Of a stretch of DNA of 64,000 nt, positions 53,903-54,100 are shown one piece after another. The stretch spans positions 49,662,001-49,726,000 of the forward strand of contig NC_042999.1 in NCBI RefSeq assembly GCF_006345805.1. The letters run 5' to 3'. Position 1 is the first letter of the stretch, and each line of letters opens with the position of its first letter. The notes beneath the pieces are model-generated. The model was given only the letters and a program-made list of their open reading frames with translations, was not told where the DNA came from and searched no databases. Position numbers and translations under genes: made by a program. This DNA is from Octopus sinensis. Lineage: Eukaryota.

Positions 53903-54100
53903 AATCCAAACATGAAAACACAGAGAAAACACAACAACGCGAGGACGTGGAACAAATATAGTATTATTGGACGCTCAGGAAGGAAGGGAAGAAGGAGAGT
54001 TTTACGTTTCGAGCGGAGCTCTTTGTCGGAAACATAGGAGAAGGAAAGATCCAGAGAAGGGAAGACAGAGGAAAAAAATCGCCAACAGTACACACGCGGT
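53900..54100 (-). mobile_element. Family H2 short repeat with minimal hammerhead-like motif, abutting (TA)n
   Basis: 54033..53999: GTTT CCGACAA A GAGC TCC GCTC GAAAC GTA AAAC; shares GCTCAGGAA (+ strand) and layout with family H1. Confidence 0.6.

Follow-up and report, generated by a model that had tools for sequence, protein, structure and literature searches.

An altered-core minimal hammerhead motif in a high-copy, probably Penelope-derived repeat of Octopus sinensis

Our analysis of a 64,000-nt stretch of the Octopus sinensis genome (hereafter, the window) makes it quite probable that a minimal type I hammerhead motif lies there in a decayed copy of a high-copy repeat of ~200 nt, H2, that H2 likely stems from a Neptune-like Penelope element (PLE) as its pseudo-LTR or 3′ end, and that a second family, H1, is its homologous sister. 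The novelty is modest and lies in core variants at the family level (U4C in H2 and the loss of A6 in H1); the base-pair swap that separates the two families in stem I adds one example to a 2014 publication.

The hammerhead motif in the window

The minus strand at 53999–54033 reads GUUU CCGACAA A GAGC UCC GCUC GAAA CGU A AAAC (Table 1). The frame comprising stem II and GAAACGU, AAGAGC-loop-GCTCGAAACGT, was found exactly twice in the window, and none of 100 dinucleotide shuffles equaled that count (mean 0.00), which ruled out a chance motif. Both the minus-strand sequence and this pattern, occurring beyond the shuffled expectation, bore out the hammerhead-type motif that the initial annotation had placed here. 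A looser search combined with a profile made from the copies detected five motifs in the window, one of H2 and four of H1; of the two families originally proposed, H1 is real, with four copies, but H2 is represented in the window by a single copy.

Like the minimal hammerheads (min-HHRs) described in PLEs (Cervera & de la Pena 2014, PMC4209133), H1 and H2 lack loop III, carry a palindromic CG between GAAA and UH, have a 4-bp helix II, and could form a short helix I of 4–5 bp (4 bp possible in H2, 4–5 in H1). The unpaired extra nucleotide after A9 (between 9 and 10.1) and the G10.1–C11.1 pair, both of which min-HHR membership requires, are present, and a pyrimidine-rich 5′ flank also fits the consensus. 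Helix III is absent in the monomer, with the palindrome ACGU at 15.1–16.1 (15.2–16.2 in the fit to the consensus), and in the H2 family this palindrome extends to AACGUU via U17. The published min-HHRs likewise occur mostly as dispersed single copies, in families that differ by compensatory changes (PMC4209133). The core is where H1 and H2 depart from them: all 56 published representatives start with CUGA or UUGA, and none of the 56 is from a cephalopod (PMC4209133), whereas, in place of CUGANGA...GAAA, the H2 majority has CCGACGA, the window copy has CCGACAA, and all four H1 copies lack A6. H2 is a min-HHR core variant, not a strict member, and only its U4 fraction is canonical. Loop II is GUAG in H1 and UCC in H2. 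Rfam gave no match in the window at the gathering score and no hammerhead among the nine weak matches in 53900–57400 at E ≤ 10; Rfam hammerhead models are expected to need helix III, which is absent from the H2 motif.

The window copy of H2 is predicted to be inactive and is likely catalytically dead because the C3–G8 pair is lost; in an anole PLE hammerhead, the single mutants G8C and C3G abolish cleavage, G8A not being among the mutants studied in that work (PMC11167929). Predicted stem I pair probabilities for monomers were 0.004–0.005 for H2 and H1c and 0.56–0.93 for H1a, H1b, and H1d. In the predicted H2 monomer, the G of pair 4 favors a competing hairpin in which the 5′ arm pairs with GAAACGU. 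The H2 monomer is thus predicted to misfold, and a dimer, which would occupy ACGU, could relieve this misfolding. The same G completes an ATG at 54033–54035 (−), the start of a frame just 23 codons long; for comparison, the anole PLE has its ORF start within the hammerhead (PMC11167929).

Table 1. Positions of the H2 and H1 features in the window
Feature	Position	Strand	Basis
H2 unit, ~200-nt high-copy noncoding repeat, likely PLE pseudo-LTR or 3′ end	53900..54101	-	Contig depth
(TA)n/(CA)n microsatellite abutting the H2 unit 3′ end, likely insertion target	53596..53899	.	Tandem Repeats Finder
H2 minimal type I hammerhead motif	53999..54033	-	Sequence; min-HHR consensus of PMC4209133 Fig. S3 fits except at positions 4 and 8
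H2 stem I	54030-54033 with 53999-54002	-	
H2 core	54023-54029	-	
H2 extra A	54022	-	
H2 stem II	54018-54021 with 54011-54014	-	
H2 loop II	54015-54017	-	
H2 GAAA	54007-54010	-	
H2 palindromic ACGU	54004-54007	-	
H2 residue 17	54003	-	
G8-to-A change in the window H2 copy (CpG decay), C3–G8 pair broken	54024	-	G8 in 93-97% of contig depth
C4 replacing canonical U4, H2 family majority form	54028	-	U4 in 27.4/17.8/14.3% of contig depth
H1 copy a, core CUGUCGA at 43114, ends in TA run	43069..43251	+	
H1 copy b, core CUGUUGA at 57301, ends in TA run	57157..57346	-	
H1 copy c, core CUGCGGA at 44, cut by window start	1..95	-	
H1 copy d, more decayed, stem II broken	49972..50129	-	

Repeat families and element identity

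Four public runs were aligned to 53905–54204 at 80% likeness, and family percentages for H2 were taken from three contig sets (X1, X5, and X8, with 10888, 8752, and 196 contig records, respectively; X8 may be RNA); a raw-read run, X22, gave 2 reads and was excluded. These percentages are summed contig depth, not copy number, and are unphased. Depth in X1 stayed high between about 53905 and 54101, then fell ~4000-fold, from 436119 at 54095–54104 to 108 at 54105–54114, and the loose ends of H2 contigs behind 54101 were heterogeneous; H2 is therefore a discrete repeat of ~200 nt. Open frames of 114 and 117 codons across it had no Pfam match. On the far side of the abutting TA run, a MITE-like fold-back element (52616–53598; arms 52616–52888/53326–53598 and 52895–53062/53164–53331) ends at that run.

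G8 is restored (54024 T>C) in 92.9/96.7/96.2% of the X1/X5/X8 depth, so the family core is CCGACGA, as the initial annotation had supposed for the time before CpG decay. C4 is the majority letter across the contig sets, and it was on this ground that a private mutation of the window copy was rejected. Opposite-strand decay of the position-4 CpG (54027) amounted to 1.1–3.6% as against 14–27% for U4, and decay at other CpGs of H2 was mostly 0–7%, apart from two outliers (14.7 and 11.6%) in X8, a small set. A U4 subfamily of H2 thus probably exists, although CpG decay will account for some of the U4 signal. The change 54053 A>C (27/20/15%) matches U4 at 54028 (27/18/14%) in frequency across the three runs, unphased as these are, suggesting that both belong to one H2 subfamily. 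C3, G5, G8, A9, GAAA, and U16.1 are majority letters in the family. Residue 17 is U in 85–96% (54003 T>A) and C in 0.3–6.9%, so that the cleavage triplet is mostly GUU and the GUA of the window copy is a minority form.

The H1 copies span from core to CGU at 43114–43140 (+), 57275–57301 (−), 50080–50106 (−), and 18–44 (−). Core position 6 is U in three of them and C in the fourth. Among the motifs listed, none of the animal-like metagenome clusters (see below) has U6, and H1 may be the only family with A6U. When the 3′ tails of H1b and H2 were aligned, the score was 50 (shuffle mean 27), and only 1 of 1000 shuffles scored as high; because the tails align above chance, the two families are, as judged from their sequences, homologous, and the H1/H2 comparison is one between homologues. 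A mariner-type DNA transposon (43249–44530; 42-nt inverted ends, HTH_48 and Transposase_1 in two frames) abuts the TA tail of H1a, and a second mariner fragment lies at 12363–12851 (−). SINE-like repeat families are abundant in the window (33880–34104, 35155–35367, 39474–39951, and 47416–47806, also 35660–36068 and 50116–50536), some being tandem dimers with periods of 251 and 184.

H2 and the three full H1 copies all end in TA runs, H1c being cut by the window edge, and insertion at (TA)n is in line with the microsatellite bias described for Neptune (PMC8557442). No PLE reading frame was detected beside H1 or H2 within the window, a difference from the published PLE min-HHRs (PMC4209133). Twelve long frames from PLE loci of a metagenome bin, G001 (described below), gave one weak match elsewhere in the window (31244–31381, E 0.007), and 150 endonuclease fragments gave two at 42703–42804 (E 0.004–0.008). 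The exact H1 and H2 motifs had no match in genome_contigs; a search of that set returned 13 matches, of which only L021 is clearly of the family. Another 13 matches, in viral_contigs, were taken as chance, none having a hammerhead core together with stem I. Many PLE families are present in Octopus vulgaris; the available text of the annotation paper mentions neither ribozyme nor hammerhead (PMC13282606).

The ~200-nt unit without a reading frame would also suit non-LTR retrozymes, tandem repeats copied via circular RNA, or an unrelated SINE. Animal non-LTR retrozymes are likewise short noncoding hammerhead repeats, probably PLE-derived (PMC7229834; 10.64898/2026.07.22.740005), and have been proposed to be derivatives of PLE pseudo-LTRs (10.64898/2026.07.22.740005). 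However, retrozymes consist of tandem units with a canonical type I hammerhead in each (PMC7229834), whereas the hammerheads of H1 and H2 are minimal, all five window copies are single, neither family forms an array according to Tandem Repeats Finder, the 5′ flanks are heterogeneous among the loose ends listed, and no head-to-tail joint is found among the 11 joints listed. We therefore consider the retrozyme or SINE origin very improbable. PLE membership of H1 and H2 is likely, with their architecture and TA-run ends as its basis.

Pairing in stem I

Pair 4 of stem I is C–G in all four H1 copies and G–C in H2, confirming the swap reported in the initial annotation. The H1 stem given there, UCUUU/AAAGA, applies to two of the four copies, the other two having C·A instead of U–A at pair 5; this neighboring pair is thus not kept, and in H2 it is unpaired (U·U in the window copy and U·C in the family, with 53998 A>G at 94–97%).

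A metagenome scan in which stem II, C3, G5, G8, A9, and GAAACGU were fixed, with no restriction on stem I or on positions 4, 6, and 7, yielded at least 119 motifs at a minimum of 118 loci; the invariance of stem II among them is imposed by the search pattern and is no evidence of conservation. After 13 motifs with a core other than C[CU]GANGA had been dropped, 106 were clustered by their flanks into 22 groups, giving 24 families with H1 and H2 added; four groups with a short loop III were shifted by 2 nt before the pairing count. Among the motifs listed, pair I.2 was paired in 20/24 families against a shuffled mean of 9.8 (0/5000 shuffles), with four Watson–Crick types, followed by I.1 (20/24 vs 17.3, P 0.024) and I.3 (14/24 vs 9.8, P 0.046), whereas I.4 (10/24 vs 10.4, P 0.66) and I.5 (8/24 vs 10.5) were not above chance; relatedness among the families inflates these figures, so that the P-values should not be taken at face value. 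A second count used 22 rows, namely H1b, H2, and 20 metagenome representatives among the motifs listed; the four shifted groups and a duplicate group were excluded, and three extra members of large groups and three probable chance matches were included. The covariation score was 0.173 against 0.111 in shuffles (4/500), and double-sided changes numbered 21 against 13.8 (8/500); there was no excess of pairs with double changes (161/500) or of pair types (448/500) in the 22 rows.

Across families, the inner part of stem I thus persists as a helix, but pair 4 is not the one that shows it. Of the conserved stem I pairing that had been claimed, the counts among the motifs listed support I.1–I.3, which were paired beyond the shuffles, and not pair 4; I.4 and I.5 showed no excess. 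Since the H1/H2 swap is a single event, I.4 is not above chance, I.5 is broken, and the new G favors the competing hairpin, the swap by itself is weak evidence. A compensatory change of this type is ordinary for a known kind of RNA, and such covariation has already been published (2014).

The swap might even be incidental, with only I.1–I.3 constrained and pair 4 matching by chance in both H1 and H2. Its occurrence as one evolutionary event, the one-sided change that breaks pair 5, and the chance-level pairing of I.4 among the motifs listed, in the 24 families and in the representatives (7/22), would fit this explanation. Within H2, however, the sole variant above 3% at pair 4 turns G–C into G·U (53999 G>A; 12.1/7.3/4.9% of the X1/X5/X8 depth) and so keeps the pairing, while 54033 has no variant at or above 3%; C–G is also kept in 4/4 H1 copies, and helix I is often 4–5 bp long in published min-HHRs (PMC4209133). 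An incidental swap therefore seems doubtful to us.

Core variants and the role of cleavage

The largest metagenome cluster comprises at least 67 motifs and is called coral-like here because it differs very little from the Neptune motif published for Acropora digitifera. Among the motifs listed, its 67 members split into C4 (35) and U4 (32), each with its own downstream letters, and U4 occurs in 74 of all 119 metagenome motifs, including 3 dropped by the core filter. The Acropora digitifera Neptune hammerhead (PMC4209133 Table S1, Fig. S3) and its C4 subfamily (cluster 0, G001) share with H2 the core C-N-G-A-C-G-A plus A, the stem II form G(A/G)GC/GCUC, and GAAACGU. They differ from H2 in stem I (GCU/AGC, compared with GUUU/AAAC in H2), loop II (UAAC, compared with UCC), and residue 17 (C, compared with mostly U). 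Beyond the motif itself, neither H1 nor H2 had significant similarity to the coral-like element.

Bin G001 is filed as a bacterial genome and has 112 matches to PLE endonuclease protein as well as many hammerheads; it is largely animal host DNA. Thirty-three distinct family motifs from this bin passed the filter (49 pattern matches), and 31 of them have C4. One CCGACGA motif lies 98 nt behind the stop of a stop-free RT/GIY-YIG frame of 775 aa, in which RVT_1 (E 1.9e-6) and GIY-YIG (E 2.6e-4) score slightly under the Pfam cut-offs and are joined by a CX4CxxC linker. An ORF with an RT and, C-terminally, a GIY-YIG domain is thus found upstream of the motif in the C4 coral-like family, and C4 is carried by a young Neptune-type family, probably of a coral. 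Short upstream fragments of five metagenome loci gave no real Pfam match; the GIY-YIG label derives from longer relatives, 4/8 of which are at or above the cut-off. CpG decay from G8 to A also occurs in L167 of G001, and opposite-strand motif pairs ~50–100 nt apart (L151/L152, L158/L159, L175, L177, and L185) resemble the inverted 5′-truncated copies described for PLEs. C7 accompanies C4 in 32/36 CCGANGA cores among the motifs listed (L027–L144, L153–L191), and in H2, whereas U4 cores among those motifs take any base at position 7; the C4–C7 association could be shared descent or a 4–7 interaction.

The core changes in both families (U4C in H2, loss of A6 in H1) are expected to lower activity. 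The same positions are changed in a viroid (U4C, PMC3088659) and in phage Bcep176 (A6C, PMC7151607), for which low but real activity is reported; these are single ribozymes with a full helix III, whereas in H1, mostly with U6, and in H2 it is most of a high-copy retroelement family that carries the change. One might suppose that the fold serves the retroelement RNA as a structural or protein-binding signal, with no further need for cleavage, so that helices are kept while U4 and A6 drift. The prevalence of C4 in H2 and in 31/33 distinct G001 motifs, the absence of A6 in all H1 copies, the finding that U4C “considerably decreases activity in vitro” (PMC3088659), and the insertion of hammerhead-dead mutants of the anole PLE in vitro (PMC11167929) all point in that direction. 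Against it, C3, G5, G8, A9, GAAA, and U16.1 remain the majority letters in H2, U4 persists in 74/119 metagenome motifs among those listed, the viroid with U4C is still infectious, and the A6C variant still cleaves slowly (PMC3088659, PMC7151607). We regard a purely structural role as rather unlikely.

Under the preferred reading, that of a hammerhead that does cleave, source elements would be transcribed and two motif copies would pair via the palindromic ACGU to form helix III; dimer cleavage has been shown for other PLE hammerheads (PMC4209133). Cleavage after residue 17 would then be slow and probably occur only with help of the element's protein, as protein-assisted cleavage has been described in the anole PLE (PMC11167929). 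Selection on the source RNAs would preserve pairing at positions 1–3 or 1–4 of stem I while the letters there drift, yielding swaps such as C–G to G–C, and copies inserted beside (TA)n runs would decay neutrally, as the window copy may have done in losing G8.

In the literature searched and in the supplement of PMC4209133, we found neither U4C nor A6U described for a PLE hammerhead, nor any hammerhead from a cephalopod; the supplement of PMC7229834, with 16 Acropora millepora families, lies outside this scope and may already show C4. Published searches fix “cuganga” (PMC8557442, methods), and C4 families would therefore be missed. We tentatively raise the possibility, which we hold below even chances, that core-altered hammerheads (U4C and, for H1, A6U) have become fixed in Penelope families that amplify successfully in two animal phyla, are invisible to CUGANGA descriptors, and act as deliberately weak, protein-licensed ribozymes. 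If this is true, many PLE families scored as hammerhead-less could hide core variants. The need for hammerhead cleavage in Penelope elements is debatable, given that dead mutants insert in vitro (PMC11167929), and natural U4/C4 subfamily pairs, one of them behind an intact RT-endonuclease frame, offer a ready comparison for whether Penelope needs it.
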